Source: Escherichia phage vB_EcoS_UTEC10. From it: a DNA stretch of 44,773 nucleotides. Made by a program: the position numbers and the translations under genes. Shown one piece after another: positions 1,847 to 33,036 of this stretch; position 1 is the stretch's first letter; each line of letters opens with the position of its first letter. The notes below the pieces were generated by a model. The model did no database searches, was not told the DNA's origin, and saw only the letters and a list, made by a program, of their open reading frames with translations. The DNA is taken from the sequence record PP291582.1. One strand, 5' to 3'.

Positions 1847-2347
1847 TCATTTAACAGCCCTCCCAATAGCCTCAGCCTCTTGCCACGGTTTACCGTCGAA
1901 CAGTGCAAGCCGTCCGGCGGTACGGCGGCGCAGGCCGAGTAACGGTTTACCGTTCTGGTTGATGAACAGCGCCAGCTTAGCCTGCAGCGTCGCAATATCT
2001 CCCCGCCGTAGCGCCTTACCTGTGCCTGTAGTAGCGGCAATCACACCTGCTCCGGCGTTATACACCAGGTCACACACCGCGTCAAACTGAGCCTGTGTCA
2101 GTGAATGGTGTGCTGCTGCGTCAACCGCAGCTACGGCCTTAGCCATATCGCGATTCAGTAACAGGAGGCCTTGTCCGGGGGTGATGGTCTTACCAGGTGT
2201 TACGTCAGGCCCGTAGTGACCATAGCCAATAGTAAGGTACTTCTCGTTCGGCGTAGCACGATACGCAGTTCCGCGGAATCCCTCGAACGCGGCAGTGAAA
2301 TGCAACCCATTATCTGAAATATTTCGAGACACGCTTATGTCCTCCAT
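1847..2347 (-). CDS. endolysin, T4-type lysozyme fold (GH24-like)
   Basis: FEGFRGTAYRATPNEKYLTIGYGH matches the catalytic Glu-Asp-Thr region of T4-type lysozymes; start uncertain (ATG 2347 or TTG 2383). Confidence 0.8.
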   Translation of the reverse strand: MEDISVSRNISDNGLHFTAAFEGFRGTAYRATPNEKYLTIGYGHYGPDVTPGKTITPGQGLLLLNRDMAKAVAAVDAAAHHSLTQAQFDAVCDLVYNAGAGVIAATTGTGKALRRGDIATLQAKLALFINQNGKPLLGLRRRTAGRLALFDGKPWQEAEAIGRAVK

Positions 2348-2582
2348 ACGACAGCCACGCCTGACGAATCTGACGCAGCGCAACTAATGTGATTAATGTC
2401 TCCGGCAACGTCGGGGACATGCTGCCCTGTAACAGGTGGATGCATCCGGCGACGCAGACGATAGCGGTCAGGATATAGAGCACCCGACCAAACAGCCCGT
2501 CGTCCACGCTGGGGTGGTACACATTAAACAGCGATGTGCCCCCGATTGCCAGCATACCGCCGAACCAGAATAGTTCATTCAT
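2310..2582 (-). CDS. two-TM membrane protein, holin/antiholin-like
   Basis: Internal ATG at 2582 with GAGGAGG RBS; 90 aa with two hydrophobic helices; sits between holin and endolysin. Confidence 0.45.
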   Translation of the reverse strand: MNELFWFGGMLAIGGTSLFNVYHPSVDDGLFGRVLYILTAIVCVAGCIHLLQGSMSPTLPETLITLVALRQIRQAWLSYGGHKRVSKYFR

Positions 2583-2883
2583 CTGTGCCTCCTCGACGTG
2601 CGATGTATTCTCCGGCGACGATACCAGAGAGACGGGAATAGATAGGCATCCAGAGAATGGCGATAATGAAGCCCAACCCGGCGATTTCACGGTCGCCCGT
2701 GATTCCAAACCATTGAGCTGCGAGAGGCGCGCCAAATACTGCGCAAGTGAAGCCGGTTGCAATAAAGCAGAAGCCGTCGATAGGGCCGGAAATAGCGGAC
2801 TTATGTTGTCGTAGTCCTATTACCCCTCCGGCTAGCGCGGCAGCGAGAAGCCACCCCGTCACTGTTTCAGTAAATTTATCCAA
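2575..2883 (-). CDS. holin (three predicted TM helices)
   Basis: 102 aa, three hydrophobic segments, charged C-terminus; TTG start with GGAGGA RBS; immediately upstream of the lysis genes. Confidence 0.55.
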   Translation of the reverse strand: MDKFTETVTGWLLAAALAGGVIGLRQHKSAISGPIDGFCFIATGFTCAVFGAPLAAQWFGITGDREIAGLGFIIAILWMPIYSRLSGIVAGEYIARRGGTDE

Positions 2884-2942
2884 GATGAATCCTCCAGGTG
2901 CGTATTAAGTATGCAGTAACTGGAGGATACCACGGGTAGGAA

Positions 2943-3383
2943 TTATCCTAATAGTTGTTTGGTAATAATCTTGCCGCCGGTGTTAACGTCGAACTTCGAT
3001 GCAACGGCTACGCCGCCATGCGCCGAATACCCACATTCCATAGCCGCTAATGCATATGGCGAGCCGGACCCAACGGCGGCAAAGCTGTCCGCAACCGTAA
3101 TAACCGAACTTAGTGCACAATCCCATGATTTATAGAACGCGACTTTGTACACCTTTTCTGTGTCTTTCACGAACACCAGGGCTTCGAAATCGAAGTCATA
3201 ATGTCTTGCCTGAAGGATATAAGGGTTGTCTATAAGCATAGTGCCAACTCCGGCATCACCCGCCACACCGATAATATAAGTATCATTCTCGTATATCTTT
3301 GTGTCAGTGTTGTAGCAGTTACTTCCGCACACAACGCGGGTATCACAGGCCATGGTCTTTCCATCGAATGCAATAGTAGTCAT
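2943..3383 (-). CDS. HslV/proteasome beta-subunit-like Ntn-hydrolase peptidase
   Basis: N-terminal MTTIAF (Thr nucleophile after Met), YIIGVAGDAGVGT and GSGSPYA motifs parallel HslV TTIVSV / VIAGFAGGTADA / GSGGPYA. Confidence 0.55.
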   Translation of the reverse strand: MTTIAFDGKTMACDTRVVCGSNCYNTDTKIYENDTYIIGVAGDAGVGTMLIDNPYILQARHYDFDFEALVFVKDTEKVYKVAFYKSWDCALSSVITVADSFAAVGSGSPYALAAMECGYSAHGGVAVASKFDVNTGGKIITKQLLG

Positions 3384-3673
3384 TTATGTCTCCAGATGTA
3401 TTGTCGTCTCTGCGGTTTCGTTGGAATATCATCGTACCCCCGCGATTTCCAGTAATTAAATAGCCGATTAGCGATAGCGGCGCGTTCCTGTGTTTTAAAC
3501 TCACCGAGATTCACGGCCTTCCCGTTCTGGAATCCGCAGGCGCGGACAGCTTTGCGTCTGGCCTGAATCTCTGGGTACAGCGCGTTACGGCGGCGCTTGT
3601 ATATCTGTATTTTAGCTCTCGGCGACAGCGGCGCGAGGCCGCTTCGTTTCAGGATGTCAGTTGCAAGAGACAT
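3380..3673 (-). CDS. hypothetical basic protein
   Basis: 97 aa track ORF, ATG start, ATGA overlap with the downstream gene. Confidence 0.5.
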   Translation of the reverse strand: MSLATDILKRSGLAPLSPRAKIQIYKRRRNALYPEIQARRKAVRACGFQNGKAVNLGEFKTQERAAIANRLFNYWKSRGYDDIPTKPQRRQYIWRHK

Positions 3674-3901
3674 TTATTGCCTCTCTATTTTAAAATGATA
3701 CATAATTCCGGATAACGCACCGATAGCCGTGTTGACATTGAAGTCTTTAATGTCGCAGAGGTTTCTAAGATACCGAACAGCATCAGCGAGTTCCGCGAAG
3801 TCTTCGTAACGTACCCAATCACCTTCGTCACTCTTAACCAGGTCGTTATACGGGTCGTATGGGTATTCACTAACATCTTTAAGCTCGTATCTCTGTACCA
3901 T
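3674..3901 (-). CDS. hypothetical protein, paralog A of a tandem pair
   Basis: Internal ATG at 3901 (MVQRYELKD...); shares VQRYE...LVKSDEGDW.YED with the upstream gene. Confidence 0.45.
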   Translation of the reverse strand: MVQRYELKDVSEYPYDPYNDLVKSDEGDWVRYEDFAELADAVRYLRNLCDIKDFNVNTAIGALSGIMYHFKIERQ

Positions 3902-4188
3902 CACTCCACCCCTTCCACATGTGTAACAGACCCGCAGTTCGCGCACTCGACGTAATCCGGGAACTGGTCTTTGTATTTCTGTAACTCGGCGTTTACTTCT
4001 GCCAGTCTTGACACAAGCCCCTCTATTTCCATATCCGTAGTGGTTATGTAGTCCTGGAAACTGTCGTCCAGTTCCTTGTAATCTTCGTAACTTATCCAGT
4101 CGCCTTCGTCACTCTTAACCAGCTCATGATACGGGTGGCACGAGTTAACACACACAGCTCTAAACTCATATCTCTGTACCACAATCAC
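3901..4188 (-). CDS. hypothetical protein, paralog B of a tandem pair
   Basis: 95 aa; N-terminal 40 aa paralogous to 3674..3901; C-terminus has a CxxC pair; GTG start overlapping the upstream stop. Confidence 0.45.
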   Translation of the reverse strand: MIVVQRYEFRAVCVNSCHPYHELVKSDEGDWISYEDYKELDDSFQDYITTTDMEIEGLVSRLAEVNAELQKYKDQFPDYVECANCGSVTHVEGVE

Positions 4189-24361: not shown

Positions 24362-25750
24362 TTAACCGTCCACATTAAAATCAATACGGGTGATATATTT
24401 ACTACCCCACGCAGAATCAGCCTGCGGGATGATGGCGTAATCGTCAACAGCCGTAACGTTTACCACAGAGCCGTCGGAATAGGTAATGTCGATGCTTGTC
24501 GCGCCGTTCATTACTACTTTTGCTGATGCCGTTGTTCTATCTCCTGCAATAGCTGATGTCTGTATGTAACTGGTAGTATTTGCCGATTTCTCTAACTGCG
24601 CGCCCCATACATAAATGCCATTTCCCCCCGTACCCGCGAATATTGAGGATGTGCCGGATGCGAGCTGCACCCGGATAACAGAGTTTCTAGTTGCGCCCGC
24701 CTGGAAGACCATTGTTACCCGATATGTGTCCTCGGAAACCATAACGGCATTTTTTGATACAAAATTAACTCCTGAGTTCGCGACAAATGCGCCAGTAGCA
24801 GGGTTGAATGTTGCGGTCGCTATGGTGCCCGTTGCCACCCTCAGATAAAGGTTTAGTGGGTTGCTAGTGGCTTTTACAAATATTGAATATGAATACAGCT
24901 CATCTTGCTGCACTCCTATCGTCCTGTCGTTGGCGTAATGCTCAGAATTTGAAGTTGTCGCAGTGATTTCTGCCATAGTTATATCACCACGGGGCGATAC
25001 TTCAGCATTATTCCGCACAAATGTTTGGGGTCCAGTTCCCCATGTTTCCGAATTTATGTACAAATTGCGCGAGGCATCTTCTGGCGGCACCCGCCCAACA
25101 GCTTTACCATCAATAAACGTAAGGGGCCATTCATTGGTGGCGGACGGCACAAGATTGCCGTTGCGGTTGATGTAGTAAACCTGTGGCCCGTCATACACAA
25201 TGCGGCTATCCAGGGCGGACGCCAGAAGGTTAATCGGCGGGTATCCTGCAGGCCCTTCATTGCTCCAGATGCGCGGGAACGTCGTCTCATAGTTAGCGTA
25301 TATTTTCAGGAAACTACCCAGGCAGTCACCATAGCAGCCGTACAAATCTGGCAGATTGTTAATCAGGCACTGGTTCTCAAGGTCCTGGAACGGTGATTTC
25401 TCGGCGGTTGCCGTGAAAGTAATCGTCCAGTTAATGCCGTCTTCGGTGGATTCCGCGATGGTTGACGTGATGGTTACCTGATAATCCTCAATACCCATGC
25501 CGAAGTCGTGCGCCATCCAGAAACTTGACGCACCGCCGTCTACTTTTTCGAGGAACGACAGAAACGCCTGCCGCCCCAGCGCCGATGTAATCAGGGTTAC
25601 GCTTATCGGGAACACGTCGTAATATGTGTCGCGCCCCTGACGCACCCCGCCGCCCGCTAAATCGACACTCCAGACGTTGTTACGTCGGGTCATTGAGTAG
25701 CCTTTCGATACCACCGGCTTAAGGCTACGTGGGAAATATAAGTCGCTCAT
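24362..25750 (-). CDS. distal tail / minor tail protein with C-terminal beta-sandwich-like domain
   Basis: 462 aa immediately downstream of the tape measure gene; C-terminal GIYVWGAQLE-type motif. Confidence 0.5.
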   Translation of the reverse strand: MSDLYFPRSLKPVVSKGYSMTRRNNVWSVDLAGGGVRQGRDTYYDVFPISVTLITSALGRQAFLSFLEKVDGGASSFWMAHDFGMGIEDYQVTITSTIAESTEDGINWTITFTATAEKSPFQDLENQCLINNLPDLYGCYGDCLGSFLKIYANYETTFPRIWSNEGPAGYPPINLLASALDSRIVYDGPQVYYINRNGNLVPSATNEWPLTFIDGKAVGRVPPEDASRNLYINSETWGTGPQTFVRNNAEVSPRGDITMAEITATTSNSEHYANDRTIGVQQDELYSYSIFVKATSNPLNLYLRVATGTIATATFNPATGAFVANSGVNFVSKNAVMVSEDTYRVTMVFQAGATRNSVIRVQLASGTSSIFAGTGGNGIYVWGAQLEKSANTTSYIQTSAIAGDRTTASAKVVMNGATSIDITYSDGSVVNVTAVDDYAIIPQADSAWGSKYITRIDFNVDG

Positions 25751-28092
25751 TATTTAAACCCCGGCGCGTTTCTTGTGGCCTTGCGGGCCTTGCTAATCTT
25801 ACTGTTGCTGTTCTGCAAAGATGCAGCAACTTGCTCTTCTATGATGATACGCAGACGGCCTTCATCATCCTGCTCGGTGGATACGTTGCCAATCTGACTC
25901 GATGTATTATTTACAATGGTAACATTAGATGGGCCGGAAGAAGACCCGTTTTGCCCCATAATTTCTTTCATCTGCTGCGCGGTGCGCACACGCGATGCGC
26001 CAGCGGGCATGATAACTTCGGGTTTACCGCGTTCAGCGATGGTGGAAGCCTGCCCTGCGGATAACTGTCCGCCCTGTTCACGCGCGGACCGGATAGCGGA
26101 AACCTGCGCCATACCCGCCCCAACGGCAGCGGCAGCGGCTACGGGGGCCAGGAACGGGCCAACTACAGGGATAGCGGCCGTTGACTTATAAGCCTCAATA
26201 GCTGCTGTGTACGTGGCTATGGTGGCCTGTACGATAGCGAATGCCTTATACGCACCAGAGGCCTCGCCCAACGCAGACCCGATGTTTGACGCCATGTTAC
26301 CGAAGGCGGTTGCCGTTGCGTCGGCACGCTTGGTGGCGTATTGCTCGTTGATGGCGTTAAGCGCGGCCTGATACTGCTTCTCACTAATAAGCCCTTGCTC
26401 ACGGTACTTATCTGCGACCGCCAGTTTCTGCTGCTCCTGGATGTCGAGAAGATCAAGCTCAGTAGCGTTCTGGCCAATAATCTGAGCCATGAAGTCGTCG
26501 CCTTTCTGCTTTTTCTCCTGCCGTTCTTTCTCGCGCTTATCCAATTCTTGCTGCCGTGCGGTATCCGCCTCCAGCATAATCTGAGTTTTGGCGTTCTCGT
26601 ATTGTTGGTCGCTAAGAAGCCTATTGCCATAGAACTCCTGTAGCTTGGTTAGCTGCTGTTCCTGGTTGGCTTCTATTTTCTGGAATACGTCATCATTGAG
26701 ATGAATCGACTGGTAGTAGAAATCCTCAGCAGCTTTCTTCTGGCGCTCGAACGCATCCGCGGCTTTCTTAGCGGCTTTTGCACCAGCGCTATCATCTTCG
26801 GATCCGCCACCAGTACCCGTTACCTTAAATTTACTAAGCCCTTCTTCCTTAGCAGCCTCTTTGTCGATGTCATACGCCGCGCGTTTAAGCGCGACGATAT
26901 TTTGCTGAGCCTCCACCTGTTCACGGAAACTTTTACGGGTCAGGTCAGCAACATCGCGCTGAGTATCCAGTGCCATCCCCAGCTGGAAGTTGATATTTTT
27001 TGCTACGTCTACAGATTCACCTGGTGTGAAGGCCGCTTTCACTAGTCGCCCAGCGTCCTGTGCCCCTTTAACCATATCCTCAAAGAAGCGCTCCATAGCG
27101 GTGAATTCTTCTGCGATGAAATCGAGAGCATCGGCGGCGGATTCCGCTATGGTTGTCGCCGTTTGTTCGCCGCTGTCAGTGATACTTTTACTGCTAAAAT
27201 CCCAAAGTTCATTCAGTCCGTTTATCGCATCGCCTACGAAGCCGAACGCGGCGTCAAACGACGTCTCTATGGCGCTGCCTACTTCTGACGCGATGTCGCC
27301 CCACATACGCATCTCAGCAGCAAGCTCCCCAGATGCAACCTGTGCATTAAGCTCCTGGATTAAGTCATCTATGTATCTGATAGGTTCGGCTAGGGCGCCA
27401 ACATCAAGACTGGTGGCCAGTGTCATTTTTAACTGCGACCATGAGTCGCTGGCACTGGCTATAGCGCCGTTGAGTGTGTTGGCCTGGTCCGCCATAGCAC
27501 CCGCAAAGTTTACGTTACCAATGTTAAGAAGGTACTGCTCGATATCAGCAGCGCTCTTCTTAACTACCGTAGTGGTGCCCTGGAATGTAAATTCAACATC
27601 GTTTTTGTTCTGCTTGGCCTTGATGCCGAACTCTTTAAGGCGCTCAAATTCAAATGTACTGGCGTCCGCAACGGCCTCAATCATCTGATTCAGGTCTTTA
27701 CCCATAGCGGCGGCGGTGTTGCCGTAGGAGCGCAACGCTTCTTCTGATGGGGTGAGGCCGAGCGCCACAAGTTTACGGAAACCCTCTACTGCCTGCTCGA
27801 GCCCGTAAGGAGTGTCGCGCGCGAAGTCTTGCAGGATGCTTAATGCCTGTCTTGCGCCCTGTGTGCTCCCGGTTAACGTTTTCAGGCTGGCGGACATCTT
27901 GTCCAGTTGCCGTTGGGAGTCCACCAGTTCCTGCGCGGCCTTGTAAGCGGTAGCGGCGACAATTGAAGCAAGGCCCGCTACGGCGGTCCCCGCTACTTTT
28001 GCCGACTTGGAGAGATTATCAAGACGGTCCGATGTAGCTTTCGCGCCTTGCTCTGATACTTTTACAACTAAACTAGCTACATCAGCCATCAT
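25750..28092 (-). CDS. tail tape measure protein
   Basis: 780 aa, long helical/coiled-coil protein rich in Ala/Gln/Glu; location downstream of the chaperone pair. Confidence 0.8.
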   Translation of the reverse strand: MMADVASLVVKVSEQGAKATSDRLDNLSKSAKVAGTAVAGLASIVAATAYKAAQELVDSQRQLDKMSASLKTLTGSTQGARQALSILQDFARDTPYGLEQAVEGFRKLVALGLTPSEEALRSYGNTAAAMGKDLNQMIEAVADASTFEFERLKEFGIKAKQNKNDVEFTFQGTTTVVKKSAADIEQYLLNIGNVNFAGAMADQANTLNGAIASASDSWSQLKMTLATSLDVGALAEPIRYIDDLIQELNAQVASGELAAEMRMWGDIASEVGSAIETSFDAAFGFVGDAINGLNELWDFSSKSITDSGEQTATTIAESAADALDFIAEEFTAMERFFEDMVKGAQDAGRLVKAAFTPGESVDVAKNINFQLGMALDTQRDVADLTRKSFREQVEAQQNIVALKRAAYDIDKEAAKEEGLSKFKVTGTGGGSEDDSAGAKAAKKAADAFERQKKAAEDFYYQSIHLNDDVFQKIEANQEQQLTKLQEFYGNRLLSDQQYENAKTQIMLEADTARQQELDKREKERQEKKQKGDDFMAQIIGQNATELDLLDIQEQQKLAVADKYREQGLISEKQYQAALNAINEQYATKRADATATAFGNMASNIGSALGEASGAYKAFAIVQATIATYTAAIEAYKSTAAIPVVGPFLAPVAAAAAVGAGMAQVSAIRSAREQGGQLSAGQASTIAERGKPEVIMPAGASRVRTAQQMKEIMGQNGSSSGPSNVTIVNNTSSQIGNVSTEQDDEGRLRIIIEEQVAASLQNSNSKISKARKATRNAPGFK

Positions 28093-28441
28093 TTCTACCC
28101 TCGAAAATAGCGTCTAAGCTCATGATGATGCCAGATTCAAACATGCCTATATTCTGGCCTGAAACGGTGCTGTACGCCACTAAATCCGACCATCTTAACT
28201 GTTCACGCGGGTACATCTTGATGCCATCATCGTCCACTCGGCGGGTGAATTTGATTTCCCGGTACTTCTCGAAGGTGGTTAGTAGCTCAGGGGGGCATTC
28301 TGGCCCGGTGTCCTGCGTTGCTTCCGGCGCGTCTTGCATAACCCCCATAGCAATTAGCGCGGCTTTATGCCCGTCGGAGATACTGTCAAACTCCCGCCGT
28401 TTGTGGCGAGTTATGAAGTTCCAACGGGCAAACTGGAGCAA
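28082..28441 (-). CDS. tail assembly chaperone, T-like frame (probable -1 frameshift extension of the G-like gene)
   Basis: ORF lies in the -1 frame relative to 28447..28863 and is open from 28474; GGAAAAG sits just before the G stop codon. Confidence 0.45.
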   Translation of the reverse strand: MLQFARWNFITRHKRREFDSISDGHKAALIAMGVMQDAPEATQDTGPECPPELLTTFEKYREIKFTRRVDDDGIKMYPREQLRWSDLVAYSTVSGQNIGMFESGIIMSLDAIFEGRNDG

Positions 28442-28446
28442 CGCGT

Positions 28447-28863
28447 CTACTTTTCCTGCAATTGGTGTAGCTGTTCATTGTGGAAAACAACAACGTGTTC
28501 AGCGAGGCGTTTATATTGTGAGAAAAGGGTATTCAGGTTCTCTTTATTAAATTCATCGTCGAGACTCCAACCGTTAACTAGTTCAAGTGCTAACTGGCGG
28601 TTAAGGTCCGTCGCGGCGTCTTCCATCTTAATATTGTATTCCGAGAAATCTTTCAGTTCCTCGCATTTATCACGAAGCGGTTTCAATTTACCTAATGCCG
28701 CGCGGTACGCAAGTGTAAACGCCCTCATAGCTTTAACAGCAACGTCTGCCTCCGGTGAAACAACGTTAAGCCACTCCCCTGAATCGGTGCCGTCTTTCAG
28801 TGGGATCGGCATACGGGCGCCTTTTTCCGCCTCAGCTTCGTAATAAAAATCGGAAAGTTTCAT
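28447..28863 (-). CDS. tail assembly chaperone (lambda G-like)
   Basis: 138 aa acidic protein immediately upstream of the T-frame ORF and tape measure gene. Confidence 0.5.
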   Translation of the reverse strand: MKLSDFYYEAEAEKGARMPIPLKDGTDSGEWLNVVSPEADVAVKAMRAFTLAYRAALGKLKPLRDKCEELKDFSEYNIKMEDAATDLNRQLALELVNGWSLDDEFNKENLNTLFSQYKRLAEHVVVFHNEQLHQLQEK

Positions 28864-28970
28864 TCTTTAATCCTTTGGTTAAGAGGTTACTGGTTAAGGT
28901 GAATGCGCCAGGCGGGAACCACCCGCTTTTCGTGTGCGACACTAGGCGCAAACTTATTCTAGCACACTAC

Positions 28971-28999
28971 TTGCAGGCCCCAATATAATAGGGTACTAT
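28971..28999 (+). promoter_or_regulatory. cassette promoter TTGCAG-N17-TACTAT with embedded TATAAT and AATAG-GGTA-CTATT repeat
   Basis: CCAATATAATAGGGTACTATTCA is repeated near-identically at 38644-38668 and 40816-40840. Confidence 0.55.
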
Positions 29000-29029
29000 T
29001 CACTTACACCAACAATGGAGGAATTTAAA

Positions 29030-29221
29030 ATGTCAAGTTTACCAGTTTCATTAATTCTGTTTGCACTTCTCGCCTATTTCGCGCCTTTCCTGGTTGCATA
29101 CTTCCGTAATCATAAAGCGAAGTTGGCAATATTCATGGCCAATCTGTTTCTTGGTTGGATTCTGTTGCCGTGGGTATTCATTTTAATCTGGGCTTGCAAC
29201 TCGAACGTGAAAGAGAAGTAA
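29030..29221 (+). CDS. small two-TM membrane protein, superinfection-immunity (Imm)-like
   Basis: Internal ATG with GGAGGAA RBS; 63 aa; NLFLGWILLPWVFILIWA resembles the conserved motif of small superinfection-immunity proteins. Confidence 0.5.
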   Translation: MSSLPVSLILFALLAYFAPFLVAYFRNHKAKLAIFMANLFLGWILLPWVFILIWACNSNVKEK

Positions 29222-29258
29222 GCTACTATAAGACAAATCCTAAGCACGAGGAATAAGC

Positions 29259-30389
29259 ATGGCCCGGAAGAAAATAACCGACGAACAGTTGCAGGAAGAA
29301 TTGAACGCCGGGATGAAGAATATCGATATAGCTCGTAAATACGGCATCTCCGACCGCGTTATTCGTATCCGTAAAGCGAAGCTGGCAAAGAAAGGCGTAG
29401 GCCACGGGCGCGACGTTAGTCACCTTGTACCAGACGGCTACAAGATTAAAGGAACGTCGTCGCTTGTGGACGAGTTCGGCAACACTAAGCTGCAATGGGT
29501 TAAGACCGACACCGATGCCGAACGTCAGGTCGAGTTAATGAAGGCCGTAATCGAGGGCATGAAGTCGGAGATTACCCCCGTTGCTCCTGTTAAAGCCGTT
29601 CGCACCAAACGAGACGACAAGCTACTCAACCTTTACACTGTGTCTGATTTCCATCTCGGTATGCTGGCATGGGCCGACGAGAGCGGCGATGACTGGGATA
29701 TGAAGATTGCAGAAGACCTGTTCTCTCGGTGGTTTGATGCTGCGTTTCAGAAAGCGCCAGATGCGGGAACAGGGGTTATTAACCTTCTTGGTGACTTCGC
29801 GCACTTTGATAGTCTGGATGCCGTTACGCCAGCGAGTGGTCATGTTCTTGACGCGGATACGCGCTATCAGAAACTGGTCCGCTACATGATTCGTATGGTC
29901 CGCCGTGTTGTCGATATGGCTCTGGTTAAACATAAAAATGTTCGCCTGCTTATCGTGCAAGGGAACCATGACGAATCAGGTATGATTTGGTTGGCTGAGA
30001 TGTTCAGTACGCTATACGACAACGAGCCTCGTGTGTTCGTCGATACGTCGCCGGATGTTTACAAGATGGTGCAACACGGCAAAACGACGCTGTTCTTCCA
30101 CCACGGGCATAAAGCACGCTTCGATGCTATCGAACCGGTTATGATTGCCAAGTTCCGCAAAGCGTTCGGTGAGAGCGTTTATAGCTACGCCCACGTGGGC
30201 CACCTGCACCATCAGAAGATTGTAGAAAGCCGTAACATGATTGTTGAGCAACACCGCACCTTAGCGGCTAAAGATGCTTACGCCTCTCGCGGCGGGTGGA
30301 TGTCGGGCCGTAGTGCAAACGTAATTACTTATAGCGCCGAATACGGCGAGGTCGCACGTTTAACTATTTCACCGGAGATGCTGGGATGA
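29259..30389 (+). CDS. HTH domain fused to calcineurin-like metallophosphoesterase
   Basis: N-terminus NIDIARKYGISDRVIRIRKAKL (HTH); C-terminal motifs DFHLG, GDFAHFD, GNHDE, HHGH, GHLHH match the DxH / GD / GNH[DE] / H / GHxH set. Confidence 0.7.
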   Translation: MARKKITDEQLQEELNAGMKNIDIARKYGISDRVIRIRKAKLAKKGVGHGRDVSHLVPDGYKIKGTSSLVDEFGNTKLQWVKTDTDAERQVELMKAVIEGMKSEITPVAPVKAVRTKRDDKLLNLYTVSDFHLGMLAWADESGDDWDMKIAEDLFSRWFDAAFQKAPDAGTGVINLLGDFAHFDSLDAVTPASGHVLDADTRYQKLVRYMIRMVRRVVDMALVKHKNVRLLIVQGNHDESGMIWLAEMFSTLYDNEPRVFVDTSPDVYKMVQHGKTTLFFHHGHKARFDAIEPVMIAKFRKAFGESVYSYAHVGHLHHQKIVESRNMIVEQHRTLAAKDAYASRGGWMSGRSANVITYSAEYGEVARLTISPEMLG

Positions 30390-30871
30390 AAAGTATTGTG
30401 ATTTTCGATTTAGATGGGACATTGGCTGATGGTACGCATCGTTTGCACCTGCTGCCGAAAGATAACTACAACGAAACGTGGGCGTGGAAGCCCTTTAACA
30501 TGGCGTGCAAAGATGATGAACCAATTAGAGATAACATCGAACTGTGTAACGCCCTCAATCGTCGCTACGCCGTTATTATTTTAACGGGCCGTAGTGATGA
30601 TGCAGAAAAAGAAACCAGAATGTGGTTGCAGCGCCACCGCGTCGAATTTTATCAGCTAATCATGCGCGGCAAACACGACAACAGAAAAGACATCGCAATT
30701 AAAGAAGAGGTGTTGCGTGCTATCGGGCTGGAGAGAATCTTGTGTGCATTCGATGATTCTCCGGCGGTAATTAAGCATTTCCGAGGCCTCGGCATAACCA
30801 CACACGCTGTCACTGAATACGACTGTAACGGTAACTCTACACACTTAAAATCACACGGGAGTGATAAATAA
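30386..30871 (+). CDS. HAD-family phosphatase (T4 Pnk phosphatase-domain-like)
   Basis: VIFDLDGTLADG is HAD motif I (DxDGT); later TGR and D-containing motifs; ATGA overlap with the upstream gene. Confidence 0.7.
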   Translation: MKSIVIFDLDGTLADGTHRLHLLPKDNYNETWAWKPFNMACKDDEPIRDNIELCNALNRRYAVIILTGRSDDAEKETRMWLQRHRVEFYQLIMRGKHDNRKDIAIKEEVLRAIGLERILCAFDDSPAVIKHFRGLGITTHAVTEYDCNGNSTHLKSHGSDK

Positions 30872-31425
30872 TGGCTAAGGTAATTATTCTTAATGGCCCT
30901 GCGGGTTGCGGGAAAGACACGCTTGCTAGGGAGCTGGTAGAAATGGGCTTTGCAAAAGGAACTACCAGTTTCAAGAATCCGATGTTCAATATTGCGCTGG
31001 CGGCGTTAGGCCCCGATACTTACCACGAGTTTCTCGACGGCTACGACGACCGGGCGCGGAAAGAAAAGCCGGAAGGCTTCCTTAACGGGTTGTCTCGGCG
31101 TCAGTTCATGATTGCCATTTCTGAGCAATTCATTAAACCGGTATTCGGTGACGATTATTTCGGTAAATATCTCGCTGAAAACTTGCCTGACGGCGACGAA
31201 GTTTTTGTAGTGTCCGACGGTGGATTCGCCAGTGAAGTGGTCCCTATCGTCGCCGCAGGGCATGACGTAAGAATTGTTCGCTTACACAGAGACGGCTATA
31301 CGTTCATCGGCGATAGCCGGGAGTATCTGTATGATGTTAGTGGCGTAAAAGATTACGACATCTACATCATACCGGGTGACGTTAAATCCAACGTCATAGA
31401 CATTGCTCTAAAATTAGGTTTGTAA
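30871..31425 (+). CDS. P-loop kinase (T4 gp1 dNMP-kinase-like, or polynucleotide-kinase-like)
   Basis: Walker A GPAGCGKDT near the N-terminus; overall layout resembles T4 gp1 (SGKDT Walker A, RLHRDG region). Confidence 0.65.
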   Translation: MAKVIILNGPAGCGKDTLARELVEMGFAKGTTSFKNPMFNIALAALGPDTYHEFLDGYDDRARKEKPEGFLNGLSRRQFMIAISEQFIKPVFGDDYFGKYLAENLPDGDEVFVVSDGGFASEVVPIVAAGHDVRIVRLHRDGYTFIGDSREYLYDVSGVKDYDIYIIPGDVKSNVIDIALKLGL

Positions 31426-31429
31426 GAAA

Positions 31430-31455
31430 AAGGCCCCGAAAGGGGCCTTAGTTTT
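31430..31455. terminator. bidirectional Rho-independent terminator (AAGGCCCC-GAAA-GGGGCCTT)
   Basis: Same stem and AGTTTTA flank as the 19060-19086 terminator; overlaps the major tail gene stop. Confidence 0.65.
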
Positions 31456-32620
31456 ATGCGTAGGTGATACGCTGGATAACAATAGACGACTGGTACTGGT
31501 TGCCAGTAGCCTGGCCCTCAATGGACTGAGTGATTGACTCAGGCCCGCCAATCTCTGGCGTAACCGCCGTAAGTTCCGCACGTTTCAGGCTGAAAGACAT
31601 AGCCCCGTTTACCCCCGCCAGAATAGAGTTAATCTCTACCTGCTGTTCGTTGATAAACTTCTGAATCATCGCCATGTCGTACAGCTTACCGGAGATGGAG
31701 AAGGTGTTAGCCGCGCGGCTACGCTCCACAAACGCTACGTTAGTGTTGCCGAGTTCGAACTGCGCCGACGCGCTGTTATCGTTGGTGATGGTCAGGCTAT
31801 CACAACGCAACGGCGTAGAACCGTCGAACACAGAAACGTCAACCGAGGAGAACGGCTCATCACCAAAAGTAACAGATGAGAAGTTGGAACCGGTCGGCGG
31901 CGTAGTGAGAATCTCCTGACTGCGACCGATGAATGGGAAGCTGCCAGTTACCATCGCGTTAACAGCCTGTTCGATGGTAAAACCAGAAACTTCCACGCCT
32001 TTGGTTAACGTGTACGCGTCAGTACCGCCGCACTGGCCTTTGTACCAGGTAAGGATAGAGAACGTCTTACACGTGTTACCGGTTTCCAGCGTGTCGCCGG
32101 TTTTAGCCTTACTAGTTTTTGTCTCGGTGGTCAGGGTGTGTTGGATGCCCGCACCAGTAACAACCGTAGCCGTTACTGCAGTAACAATAAATGGTTTTGC
32201 GTTATCGCCTGTTAAATCGGTAAATGCAATCAGGTCGCCTACCCCAACTCCGTCAGTGATAAAACTGCCGGTAGCGCGTGTGAACGTCTTGCCCGCCGGT
32301 GCGACCGTAATCGACAGACTGGACAGGGAAACACCGGATTGCCACGTAGAGCCTAAAGCACCAGCCAGCCAGTCATCCTGGCTTTTCGAGCTAAGCTCGA
32401 TCGCGTATTCGCCGCTAACCTGTTTGTTACCGGTGCGGATGGATGTAGTTTCACGGCTGCCGTCCAGTTCGTTGGAGGTCAGCGTGTCGCGGGTAATAGC
32501 AGGAACACCGCCTGTGTTGCGCAACGGCGACCATACCGGGTTAGCTGGTGTTACGCCCGGGGTGACTTCCGCCACATAGAATTGCGCGGTATTCGCGCCC
32601 TTAAAAGGAGTTGTAGCCAT
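31454..32620 (-). CDS. major tail (tube) protein
   Basis: About 388 aa Thr/Ser/Gly-rich protein downstream of the tail terminator gene; ATG at 32620 with AAGAGG RBS. Confidence 0.65.
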   Translation of the reverse strand: MATTPFKGANTAQFYVAEVTPGVTPANPVWSPLRNTGGVPAITRDTLTSNELDGSRETTSIRTGNKQVSGEYAIELSSKSQDDWLAGALGSTWQSGVSLSSLSITVAPAGKTFTRATGSFITDGVGVGDLIAFTDLTGDNAKPFIVTAVTATVVTGAGIQHTLTTETKTSKAKTGDTLETGNTCKTFSILTWYKGQCGGTDAYTLTKGVEVSGFTIEQAVNAMVTGSFPFIGRSQEILTTPPTGSNFSSVTFGDEPFSSVDVSVFDGSTPLRCDSLTITNDNSASAQFELGNTNVAFVERSRAANTFSISGKLYDMAMIQKFINEQQVEINSILAGVNGAMSFSLKRAELTAVTPEIGGPESITQSIEGQATGNQYQSSIVIQRITYA

Positions 32621-32622
32621 AT

Positions 32623-33036
32623 TCACAGCCTCTTGGTGAATGCAATAAAGTTAATTGACAATGGTCGTTTGGCCCATCCGTTTTCTACAATCAGCGGCCC
32701 CAGGCTAACCGATTGAACCTCGGCGCAGATGTCGTTACGTGAAAATGACTTACCTGCTTTAAACGCCGTGTTAAGTAAGTCTGCCATTTTATTGATTGGC
32801 GCGCTACCTTTCACCGATGCGTAGTTAATGTCTACCTGATAAACACCGGCGCGTTGTTCCGTGAAGAACAAATCAGCCTGCTCGGTATCCGCAAGTAGCA
32901 TGTAACTTGCCAGATACGGCGTATCGGTTGACGTCGGCGCGTCAATATTTTCAAGCGCAACCTTGATGCCGTTGGTGGTTCCGAAGGCTACCAGCGGCAC
33001 ATCGAACGCTTTGGTTAAGTCTTCAAAGTAGCCCAT
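32623..33036 (-). CDS. tail terminator / tail completion protein
   Basis: 137 aa; synteny immediately upstream of the major tail gene. Confidence 0.45.
   Translation of the reverse strand: MGYFEDLTKAFDVPLVAFGTTNGIKVALENIDAPTSTDTPYLASYMLLADTEQADLFFTEQRAGVYQVDINYASVKGSAPINKMADLLNTAFKAGKSFSRNDICAEVQSVSLGPLIVENGWAKRPLSINFIAFTKRL

Follow-up and report, generated by a model that had tools for sequence, protein, structure and literature searches.

The phages T1 and TLS break down host DNA and recycle its nucleotides, and the genes responsible have not been identified (PMC11447400); the literature we searched on the T1 host-degradation gene held nothing beyond this statement. In T5, one phage carries both Dmp, a DxDxT phosphatase, and Dnk, a deoxynucleoside monophosphate (dNMP) kinase, and Dmps are found mainly in phages that carry such kinases (DNKs) (bioRxiv 10.1101/2024.12.20.629578). 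In the Drexlerviridae, the slot after the exonuclease gene is variable. Where SH3 is absent, the genes found there most often are labeled "polynucleotide kinase" and dNMP kinase, and the authors of the survey suggest that these genes enhance nucleotide supply (PMC13164509). Here we describe a related locus in Escherichia phage vB_EcoS_UTEC10 (record PP291582.1), whose 44,773 nucleotides (nt), hereafter the window, are essentially the whole genome of a Kagunavirus (Guernseyvirinae). Four plus-strand genes, encoding an Imm-like protein, a helix-turn-helix (HTH) metallophosphoesterase (MPE), a HAD phosphatase and a P-loop kinase, form an island antisense to the tail genes around it. We give about even chances to the idea that this island is one promoter-to-terminator operon, in which three enzymes make up a set leading from DNA to deoxynucleoside diphosphate (dNDP) precursors and the fourth product is an exclusion protein.

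How might such an operon work? The HTH-MPE, bound to DNA, would break it down, probably host DNA, although such breakdown by a Kagunavirus is presumed. The dNMP kinase would then turn the released dNMPs into dNDPs for phage DNA synthesis, while the HAD phosphatase would remove phosphates that block or unbalance nucleotide flow. It might act like T4 Pnkp, on the 3′-phosphates of nucleotides or DNA ends, or like T5 Dmp, on 5′-dNMPs. The HAD and kinase genes, which lie downstream of the MPE gene, are a two-gene module that also occurs in T1 and most Drexlerviridae. We infer every substrate, and the order of the steps, from what is observed: the structure and coupling of the genes, their conservation and synteny, and the folds and catalytic motifs of their products. 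A dNMP kinase plus nucleotidase set for nucleotide metabolism had been one of the alternatives in an earlier, sequence-only reading of this DNA, and it is the one that fits best.

The island (Table 1) consists of four co-directional open reading frames (ORFs), each preceded by a Shine-Dalgarno sequence, and interrupts the block of minus-strand genes from the tail assembly chaperone to the major tail protein, as the sequence-only reading had described. The MPE and HAD genes share an ATGA overlap at 30386 and the HAD and kinase genes a TAATG overlap at 30871; by these stop/start overlaps, the three enzyme genes are translationally coupled. The right-hand neighbor, the major tail protein, is 99.5% identical to the K1H tail protein and has relatives in 692 phage records. 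Across positions 28400–32000, 385 phage records match the window, with 87–92% nt identity to vB_VIPECOTH07, K1G, K1ind1-3, Golestan and others. These phages, together with RP180, P AB-2017 and further Kagunavirus members, carry the same four genes, identically ordered, at this junction. We found no structural difference from their islands; the window is another member of this group. In these relatives, the genes are labeled superinfection immunity protein, DNA repair exonuclease or calcineurin-like phosphoesterase, polynucleotide kinase or acid phosphatase, and dNMP kinase or ATP-binding protein. The feature is thus already known: dozens of public genomes carry it in annotated form, the Drexlerviridae version is in the literature, and for T5 so is the reasoning that connects DNK and Dmp. 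As a cassette, it is ordinary for Kagunavirus and needs no new category.

Both ends of the proposed transcription unit are conserved. The putative promoter agrees with the consensus at eight of 12 hexamer positions and does not appear in the list from our promoter scan. In an alignment with XY1, Ro145c2YLVW, Bas76 and Salmonella phage Jersey, the hexamers and their spacing are kept while the spacer sequence varies, so that the claim of a separate promoter, weak by consensus, gains from conservation between Kagunavirus and Jersey; from this pattern, we infer promoter activity at the site. A promoter-like site that the scan did return, at 29003–29031, was discounted because it overlaps the start codon. 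At the other end, the predicted hairpin has a free energy of −19.9 kcal/mol (z = −4.1), which none of 200 shuffled sequences reached. Five phages that differ in their last island genes all have the same stem, with varying loops (GAAA, TTTC or TTCC), in agreement with the earlier assignment of a terminator to the island.

Table 1. Positions in the window of the island, its predicted signals and the adjacent tail genes
Feature	Coordinates	Strand	Remarks
Putative sigma-70-type promoter	28971..28999	+	−35 TTGCAG (28971–28976), 17-nt spacer, −10 TACTAT (28994–28999)
Imm-like gene	29030..29221	+	63 amino acids (aa); alternative ATG at 29015
HTH-MPE gene	29259..30389	+	376 aa
HAD phosphatase gene	30386..30871	+	161 aa
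P-loop kinase gene	30871..31425	+	184 aa
Predicted intrinsic-terminator hairpin, bidirectional	31430..31449	detected on both	Common to the island and the convergent major tail gene
Tape measure gene	25750–28092	−	ORF list
Further tail gene left of the island	28082–28441	−	ORF list
Tail assembly chaperone gene, left boundary	28447..28863	−	ORF list; so annotated in close relatives
Major tail (tube) protein gene, right boundary	31454..32626	−	ORF list

Since searches of PDB sequences, with single sequences or profiles, gave only P-loop-level matches for the kinase and HTH-level matches for the MPE, predicted structures were needed for both. The kinase has a P-loop, GPAGCGKDT, with an invariant K15; its Pfam match lies below cut-off, and the assignment is confirmed by the predicted fold. 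The AlphaFold2 model (predicted local distance difference test score, pLDDT, 94.1) is closest to T4 dNMP kinase, and the nearest viral structure models are annotated dNMP kinases. The protein also matches phrog_139 (1.8e-45), the family that holds T4 gp1 (1.8e-65), T1 gp16 and Webervirus KpV522 gp60, and it falls outside the Pnk clade of polynucleotide 5′-OH kinases. The curated T1 record assigns the T1 homologues of the HAD phosphatase and kinase in the same way, by HHpred to 5UJ0 and to T4 DNK, respectively. Relative to T4 gp1 (PDB 1DEK), with which it shares 19% identity, the window kinase family lacks ~55 residues and has DGGF where the T4 enzyme has DTR. Based on family and fold, the window kinase is most likely a T4 gp1-type (deoxy)nucleoside monophosphate kinase, with dNMPs as its predicted substrate. 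In more distant phages, the neighbors of the kinase gene are genes for dUTPase, ThyX, NrdA-like protein, exonuclease and DNA ligase. T4 gene 1 itself, which encodes the dNMP kinase (T4 locus 2650–3375), lies among the tail and assembly genes 57A, 1, 3 and 2, a placement that parallels that of the window kinase.

In vivo, phage DNKs act as dNMP kinases, among them that of the Drexlerviridae phage KarlJaspers, and deletion of the Rao1 DNK lowers dATP (bioRxiv 10.1101/2024.12.20.629578). Through their kinase activity, they also trigger the Kongming defense; those tested include Rao1 gp58 (catalytic K15) and the DNKs of T5, a Klebsiella phage and KarlJaspers (bioRxiv 10.1101/2024.12.20.629578). 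The window kinase is tied to these enzymes by family membership and not by alignment. As dNMP kinases trigger Kongming, the presence or absence of the kinase predicts phage sensitivity.

The HAD protein is, as had been proposed from its DxDGT motif, of the Pnk type. It matches Pfam PF25109 (HAD_PNKP; 8e-19, 68.6 bits against a cut-off of 27.6), the motif reads FDLDGT at residues 7–12, and the catalytic residues D8, D10, T12, R19, R69, D98, K106 and D124 are invariant. Its PDB matches are Pnkp1 (4xrp) and the phosphatase domain of T4 Pnkp (5uj0). By sequence, it is a stand-alone DxDxT phosphatase of the PNKP clade. In hhalign comparisons, the HAD family aligns with residues 156–298 of T4 Pnkp over 132 columns (probability 97.3%, 30% identity) and with T5 Dmp over 73 columns of the N-terminal half only (86.7%). 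However, phrog_415, a family labeled "polynucleotide kinase," matches both the window HAD (8.7e-66) and T5 Dmp (3.6e-57), a known 5′-deoxyribonucleotidase, while T4 Pnkp is assigned to PHROG 505, and an insertion of ~14–16 residues after motif I is common to the HAD and Dmp and absent from T4 Pnkp. Because the closer profile is that of T4 Pnkp, yet the insertion and PHROG are those of Dmp, the sequence is compatible with either a 3′-phosphatase or a 5′-dNMPase. The label "polynucleotide kinase" is misleading for this gene, since the product has no kinase domain and the family includes a 5′-dNMPase. The family link between HADs so labeled and T5 Dmp, drawn from profile matches, is a modest new point.

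The two reference systems differ from the island. T4 Pnkp (PseT) has a homologous phosphatase domain with the same catalytic residues, but it is a single polypeptide in which an N-terminal kinase, of another clade than the window kinase, precedes the phosphatase; in the window, phosphatase and kinase are encoded by separate genes and the phosphatase comes first. T5 resembles the window in pairing a PHROG 415 DxDxT phosphatase with a dNMP kinase. However, T5 Dmp is 244 aa long, has large insertions and aligns through its N-terminal half alone, and dmp, a pre-early gene, is separated in time from dnk, whereas the window HAD and kinase are predicted to be co-translated.

The sequence-only reading had put forward as its main idea a split set of enzymes for healing polynucleotide ends, in which the HAD removes 3′-phosphates, the MPE opens 2′,3′-cyclic phosphates and the kinase phosphorylates 5′-OH ends. 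A host ligase could then reseal tRNA breaks or DNA nicks, which would protect the phage against anticodon nucleases or against enzymes whose cuts have 3′-phosphate and 5′-OH ends. The HAD protein is genuinely of the PNKP clade, and an MPE gene directly upstream of the kinase gene recurs (see below). A kinase and an MPE are the domain pair of bacterial Pnkp, as in Clostridium thermocellum Pnkp, and the recurrent gene pair echoes this arrangement. In two Chaseviridae, the kinase gene also adjoins a DNA ligase gene. However, the kinase is of the wrong clade. Hydroxyl kinases of this fold, such as Pnk, shikimate kinase and CPT, have a catalytic Asp in the segment after strand 2; the corresponding segment of the window kinase (KGTTSFKNPMFNIALAAL) has no acidic residue. 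The best fold matches of the MPE, by a narrow margin, are SbcD and Mre11 and not PPP-type phosphatases, and as the earlier reading had remarked of the neighborhood, there is no ligase: neither an RNA or DNA ligase nor Hen1 is annotated in the closest complete genome, while in T4 an RNA ligase gene adjoins pseT. Homologous Drexlerviridae kinases also behave as dNMP kinases in vivo (bioRxiv 10.1101/2024.12.20.629578). End healing thus fails on the clade of the kinase and the lack of an annotated ligase, and has been replaced by the dNMP-kinase alternative. It keeps a small probability because the phosphatase is PNKP-like and the pairing of kinase and MPE resembles bacterial Pnkp, and we regard it as quite improbable.

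For the DNA-precursor operon, the MPE is the proposed entry point. Its Metallophos match lies below the Pfam gathering score, and the calcineurin-like assignment made earlier rests on and is confirmed by the predicted structure, a calcineurin-like sandwich (AlphaFold2 pLDDT 78.7). The catalytic domain is C-terminal to an N-terminal region with a weak LuxR/GerE-type HTH match; in precomputed annotation, homologues match various HTH families of Pfam. All five metal-ligand motifs (DxH, GD, GNH(D/E), H and GHxH) are present, and in a 48-sequence alignment the corresponding residues (D130/H132, G178/D179, N236/H237/D238, H281/H282 and G314/H315/H317) are invariant. The best fold-match scores are to SbcD (12.9), Mre11 (12.7), the B subunit of Pol delta (12.4), LpxH (12.3) and MJ0936 (12.3), with Vps29 close behind. 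No Rad50/SbcC ATPase partner is found in the ORF list of the island or is annotated in the closest complete genome. The protein is 97–99% identical across more than 100 protein clusters and has 2051 phage matches, almost all full length, in Guernseyvirinae, Dhillonvirus, Drexlerviridae, Vibrio phages and others; it is core in further siphophage groups (PMC13164509). From motifs and model, the two-metal site of the MPE is intact, and the protein is most likely a nuclease or phosphodiesterase that acts bound to DNA.

There is precedent for such an activity in a phage. Mycobacteriophage A10ZJ24 gp48, a Cluster A MPE, degrades or damages host genomic DNA and, like the window protein, is a five-motif metallophosphoesterase, with phosphodiesterase activity (PMC12287305). 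To judge from its description, it belongs to another MPE subfamily and lacks the N-terminal HTH, with motif I starting at D10. In T5, a host-DNA-degradation protein, A1, and a DNA-binding protein, A2, are encoded in the dmp operon, a functional analogy to the fused HTH-MPE. We tried A1 as a homologue of the window MPE and rejected it: it has no Pfam match, the hhalign probability is 0.2% and no homology is detectable.

Another suggestion of the sequence-only reading was that the MPE is a cyclic-nucleotide phosphodiesterase acting against host signaling. In a broader form, the MPE, the HAD or both would destroy immune signaling nucleotides or their precursors (cyclic oligonucleotides, dAMP or m6-dAMP) and so counter CBASS, Pycsar, type III CRISPR, Kongming or PUA-Cal-HAD, with the HAD perhaps serving as a built-in antidote to the immune trigger made by the phage's own dNMP kinase. 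T5 Dmp, of PHROG 415, is a proven anti-Kongming protein that depletes dAMP, and Dmps co-occur with DNKs (bioRxiv 10.1101/2024.12.20.629578); the HAD shares with Dmp the insertion described above. Calcineurin-like and HAD folds can also form a nucleotide-directed cascade, since one host effector combines a calcineurin-like enzyme with a HAD phosphatase, the two acting successively on dATP and dADP (PMC12871103). However, DNK phages other than those like T5 are reported to be Kongming sensitive (bioRxiv 10.1101/2024.12.20.629578), and the T1-type HAD is therefore evidently not protective. The homology to Dmp is limited to the N-terminal half, and searches of NCBIfam and PADLOC returned nothing usable for the island proteins, with no match to a PADLOC or anti-defense family. 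The MPE carries a predicted DNA-binding HTH, and its model has neither the 2H fold of Acb1 nor the metallo-beta-lactamase fold of Apyc1. The phosphodiesterase suggestion has no specific support. We consider a counter-defense role, although attractive for the HAD, highly unlikely.

Do the three enzymes belong together, as had been supposed? Eight of the annotated phage loci that we examined encode both HAD and kinase, and in each of them the HAD lies upstream on the same strand. The order MPE, HAD, kinase is found again in Webervirus KpV522, in Yersinia phage vB_YenM_574 (MPE 48% identical) and in Pseudomonas phage PsgS01F, and the Autographiviridae Aeromonas podophage Ahp1 has the same order with an MPE of another family (phrog_221). 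As an independent sample, we located HAD and MPE homologues in 80 IMG/VR loci with a relative of the kinase, which form 26 kinase clusters at 70% identity. HTH-MPE, HAD and kinase follow one another in this order in 25 loci (6 clusters); a HAD 134–2171 nt upstream of the kinase, with no MPE within 4 kb, in 30 loci (4 clusters); a phrog_221-type MPE 40–326 nt upstream, with no HAD, in 12 loci (6 clusters); and an HTH-MPE followed by the kinase in one locus (1 cluster). The kinase stands alone in 12 loci (9 clusters). An MPE is thus directly upstream of the kinase in 13 of the 26 clusters, and an MPE, a HAD or both lie upstream in 17. The pairs of kinase and phrog_221 MPE, the latter as in Ahp1 gp25, are in loci L078–L080, L084, L087–L092, L096 and L104, on contigs of ~41–45 kb. 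The presence of two unrelated MPE families (phrog_704 and phrog_221) beside one kinase family points to a functional link and not only to a common insertion site. This recurrent adjacency across two families, as seen in gene order, is a second modest new point, and synteny in annotated phages and IMG/VR loci together sustains the view that the enzymes belong together.

The Drexlerviridae show how the same parts can be placed elsewhere. Webervirus KpV522 (gp58–60) and T1 (gp14/gp16) encode the same three protein families, and KpV522 also shares the gene order of the window, the stop/start overlap of HAD and kinase and a terminator after the kinase. The Drexlerviridae proteins are 41–59% identical to those of the window, there is no Imm gene, and the module ends the replication operon ahead of the lysis cassette, whereas the window island is antisense inside tail genes. 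T1 differs further in having an HNH gene between HAD and kinase and its MPE at another site.

Among Guernseyvirinae, the HTH-MPE is at this junction in every genome examined, and the genes around it change, as seen in four relatives. The Jersey island consists of a 109-aa ORF, MPE, a 76-aa ORF and an ANT antirepressor; that of Bas76 of two small ORFs, MPE and a 76-aa ORF; that of Ro145c2YLVW of Imm, MPE, HNH, a 76-aa ORF and HNH; and that of XY1 of Imm, an MPE of a lineage with 60% identity, a 3′ fragment of a window-type MPE, HAD, kinase and a 58-aa ORF. In tblastn searches of 50,697 phage records, the major tail protein was found at 60% identity or more in ~494 records, and the window-type kinase and HAD, at 80% or more for the kinase, in ~52 and ~53. 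The MPE leftover in XY1 (within locus positions 2301–4034) corresponds to aa 219–376, is 86% identical to the window type and lies directly ahead of the HAD-kinase pair. This recombination scar, a further modest new point, shows that the MPE gene serves as a crossover anchor for swapping the cargo downstream of it. By these comparisons, the Imm-like gene and the HAD-kinase pair are swappable cargo and the MPE is the fixed anchor. The description of the whole island as an accessory cassette therefore holds for the Imm-like gene and the HAD-kinase pair, which are variable, but not for the HTH-MPE, which is core in Guernseyvirinae, Dhillonvirus and Drexlerviridae. Where HAD and kinase are absent, a conserved 76-aa ORF comes after the MPE (L001 4504–4734, L002 3660–3890 and L003 4901–5131); it matches the C-terminal part of larger PHROGs, phrog_2452 and phrog_17613 ("ATPase"). 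We considered the possibility that, in Jersey-type islands, it is a remnant of the kinase, but on comparison it is unrelated.

Such variability raises the possibility that the four genes share no pathway and are independent cargo at a recombination hot spot, anchored by the MPE gene on one side and the terminator and major tail gene on the other, with the HAD-kinase pair as just one of several mobile cassettes. This slot is occupied by HNH in Ro145c2YLVW, ANT in Jersey, the 76-aa ORF in Jersey and Bas76, and SH3 in the Drexlerviridae, and XY1 bears the recombination scar described above. The variable genes are also poorer in GC (Imm 41.1%, HAD 45.5%, kinase 48.3%) than the genome (50.8%) or the MPE (51.5%), although a deficit of 2–10 points is a weak signal. 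Moreover, the MPE occurs without the HAD-kinase pair in Jerseyvirus and Dhillonvirus, and in the T1-like Tempevirinae T1, W011D and MikeNSara the pair is ~11–12 kb from the MPE. However, independent cargo would not readily account for the stop/start overlaps that couple MPE, HAD and kinase, or for an MPE directly upstream in half of the independent kinase clusters, involving two MPE families and both siphophages and an Autographiviridae podophage. Overall, we view a set of unconnected genes as unlikely.

Several points nevertheless weigh against the DNA-precursor operon. Since the MPE persists alone in some genera and the HAD-kinase pair is distant from it in T1-like phages, the trio is not obligatory, and because the slot after the MPE is an insertion hot spot (HNH, ANT and SH3), the adjacency could partly reflect the mechanics of recombination. 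The fold match of the MPE does not discriminate, as the scores of SbcD and Mre11 exceed those of LpxH, the Pol delta B subunit, MJ0936 and Vps29 by a narrow margin, and the protein may have a non-nuclease role or a regulatory one mediated by its HTH. If the HAD is a 5′-dNMPase, its co-expression with a dNMP kinase would amount to a futile cycle. Finally, Rao1 lost no measurable fitness when its DNK was deleted (bioRxiv 10.1101/2024.12.20.629578).

A bolder form of the DNA-precursor operon can be envisioned. Because an MPE adjoins the kinase in many unrelated phages, the HTH-MPE is a candidate nuclease for supplying host DNA to phage DNA synthesis in the T1-like group. In phages of the T1-like, Dhillonvirus and Guernseyvirinae groups alike, it might degrade the host chromosome, with the operon colinear with a path from DNA to nucleotides, to clean 5′-dNMPs and to dNDPs. 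We consider this full scheme doubtful. If it is true, the operon would also set the exposure of the phage to dNMP-sensing immunity such as Kongming and PUA-Cal-HAD, and the label "polynucleotide kinase" would be wrong for thousands of genes in PHROG 415.

The first gene of the island probably has a separate function. Its product matches Pfam PF14373 (Imm_superinfect; 1.6e-12, 47.6 bits against a cut-off of 27.9), upholding the Imm-like assignment, and phrog_1039 (4e-24). The sequence GGAGGA lies 7 nt ahead of the ATG at 29030, a start that agrees with the 192-nt annotation in relatives. The protein has hydrophobic stretches at about residues 3–25 and 31–57 (Kyte-Doolittle 15-residue means above 1.9), separated by FRNHKAK. 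Like T4 Imm, a member of the same family, it is small with two hydrophobic segments; it differs in having 63 aa, in belonging to a siphophage and in that its role in exclusion is a prediction. As a two-helix membrane protein, it would exclude superinfecting phages, probably independently of the enzymes. In Jersey and Bas76, an ORF of 108–109 aa (phrog_14165) replaces it as the first island gene. A transcriptome paper on K1B4 places the Imm gene in the "late" class, but as its timing scheme is too coarse, we did not use it.

Two further observations concern the surroundings of the island. In vB_VIPECOTH07, the closest relative, a plus-strand HNH endonuclease gene (26392–27042) lies 3′ of the tape measure gene, before the next tail gene. 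In the window, a block of ~65 nt on the minus strand (28888–28952), between the island promoter and the start codon of the tail chaperone, matches Rfam RF02996 (int-alpA RNA) over the full model with 36.4 bits, against a gathering score of 35.8. The block is near-invariant in XY1, Ro145c2YLVW, Bas76 and Jersey, whose copies score just below the Rfam threshold, and on the plus strand its inner hairpin is followed by TTTTC.

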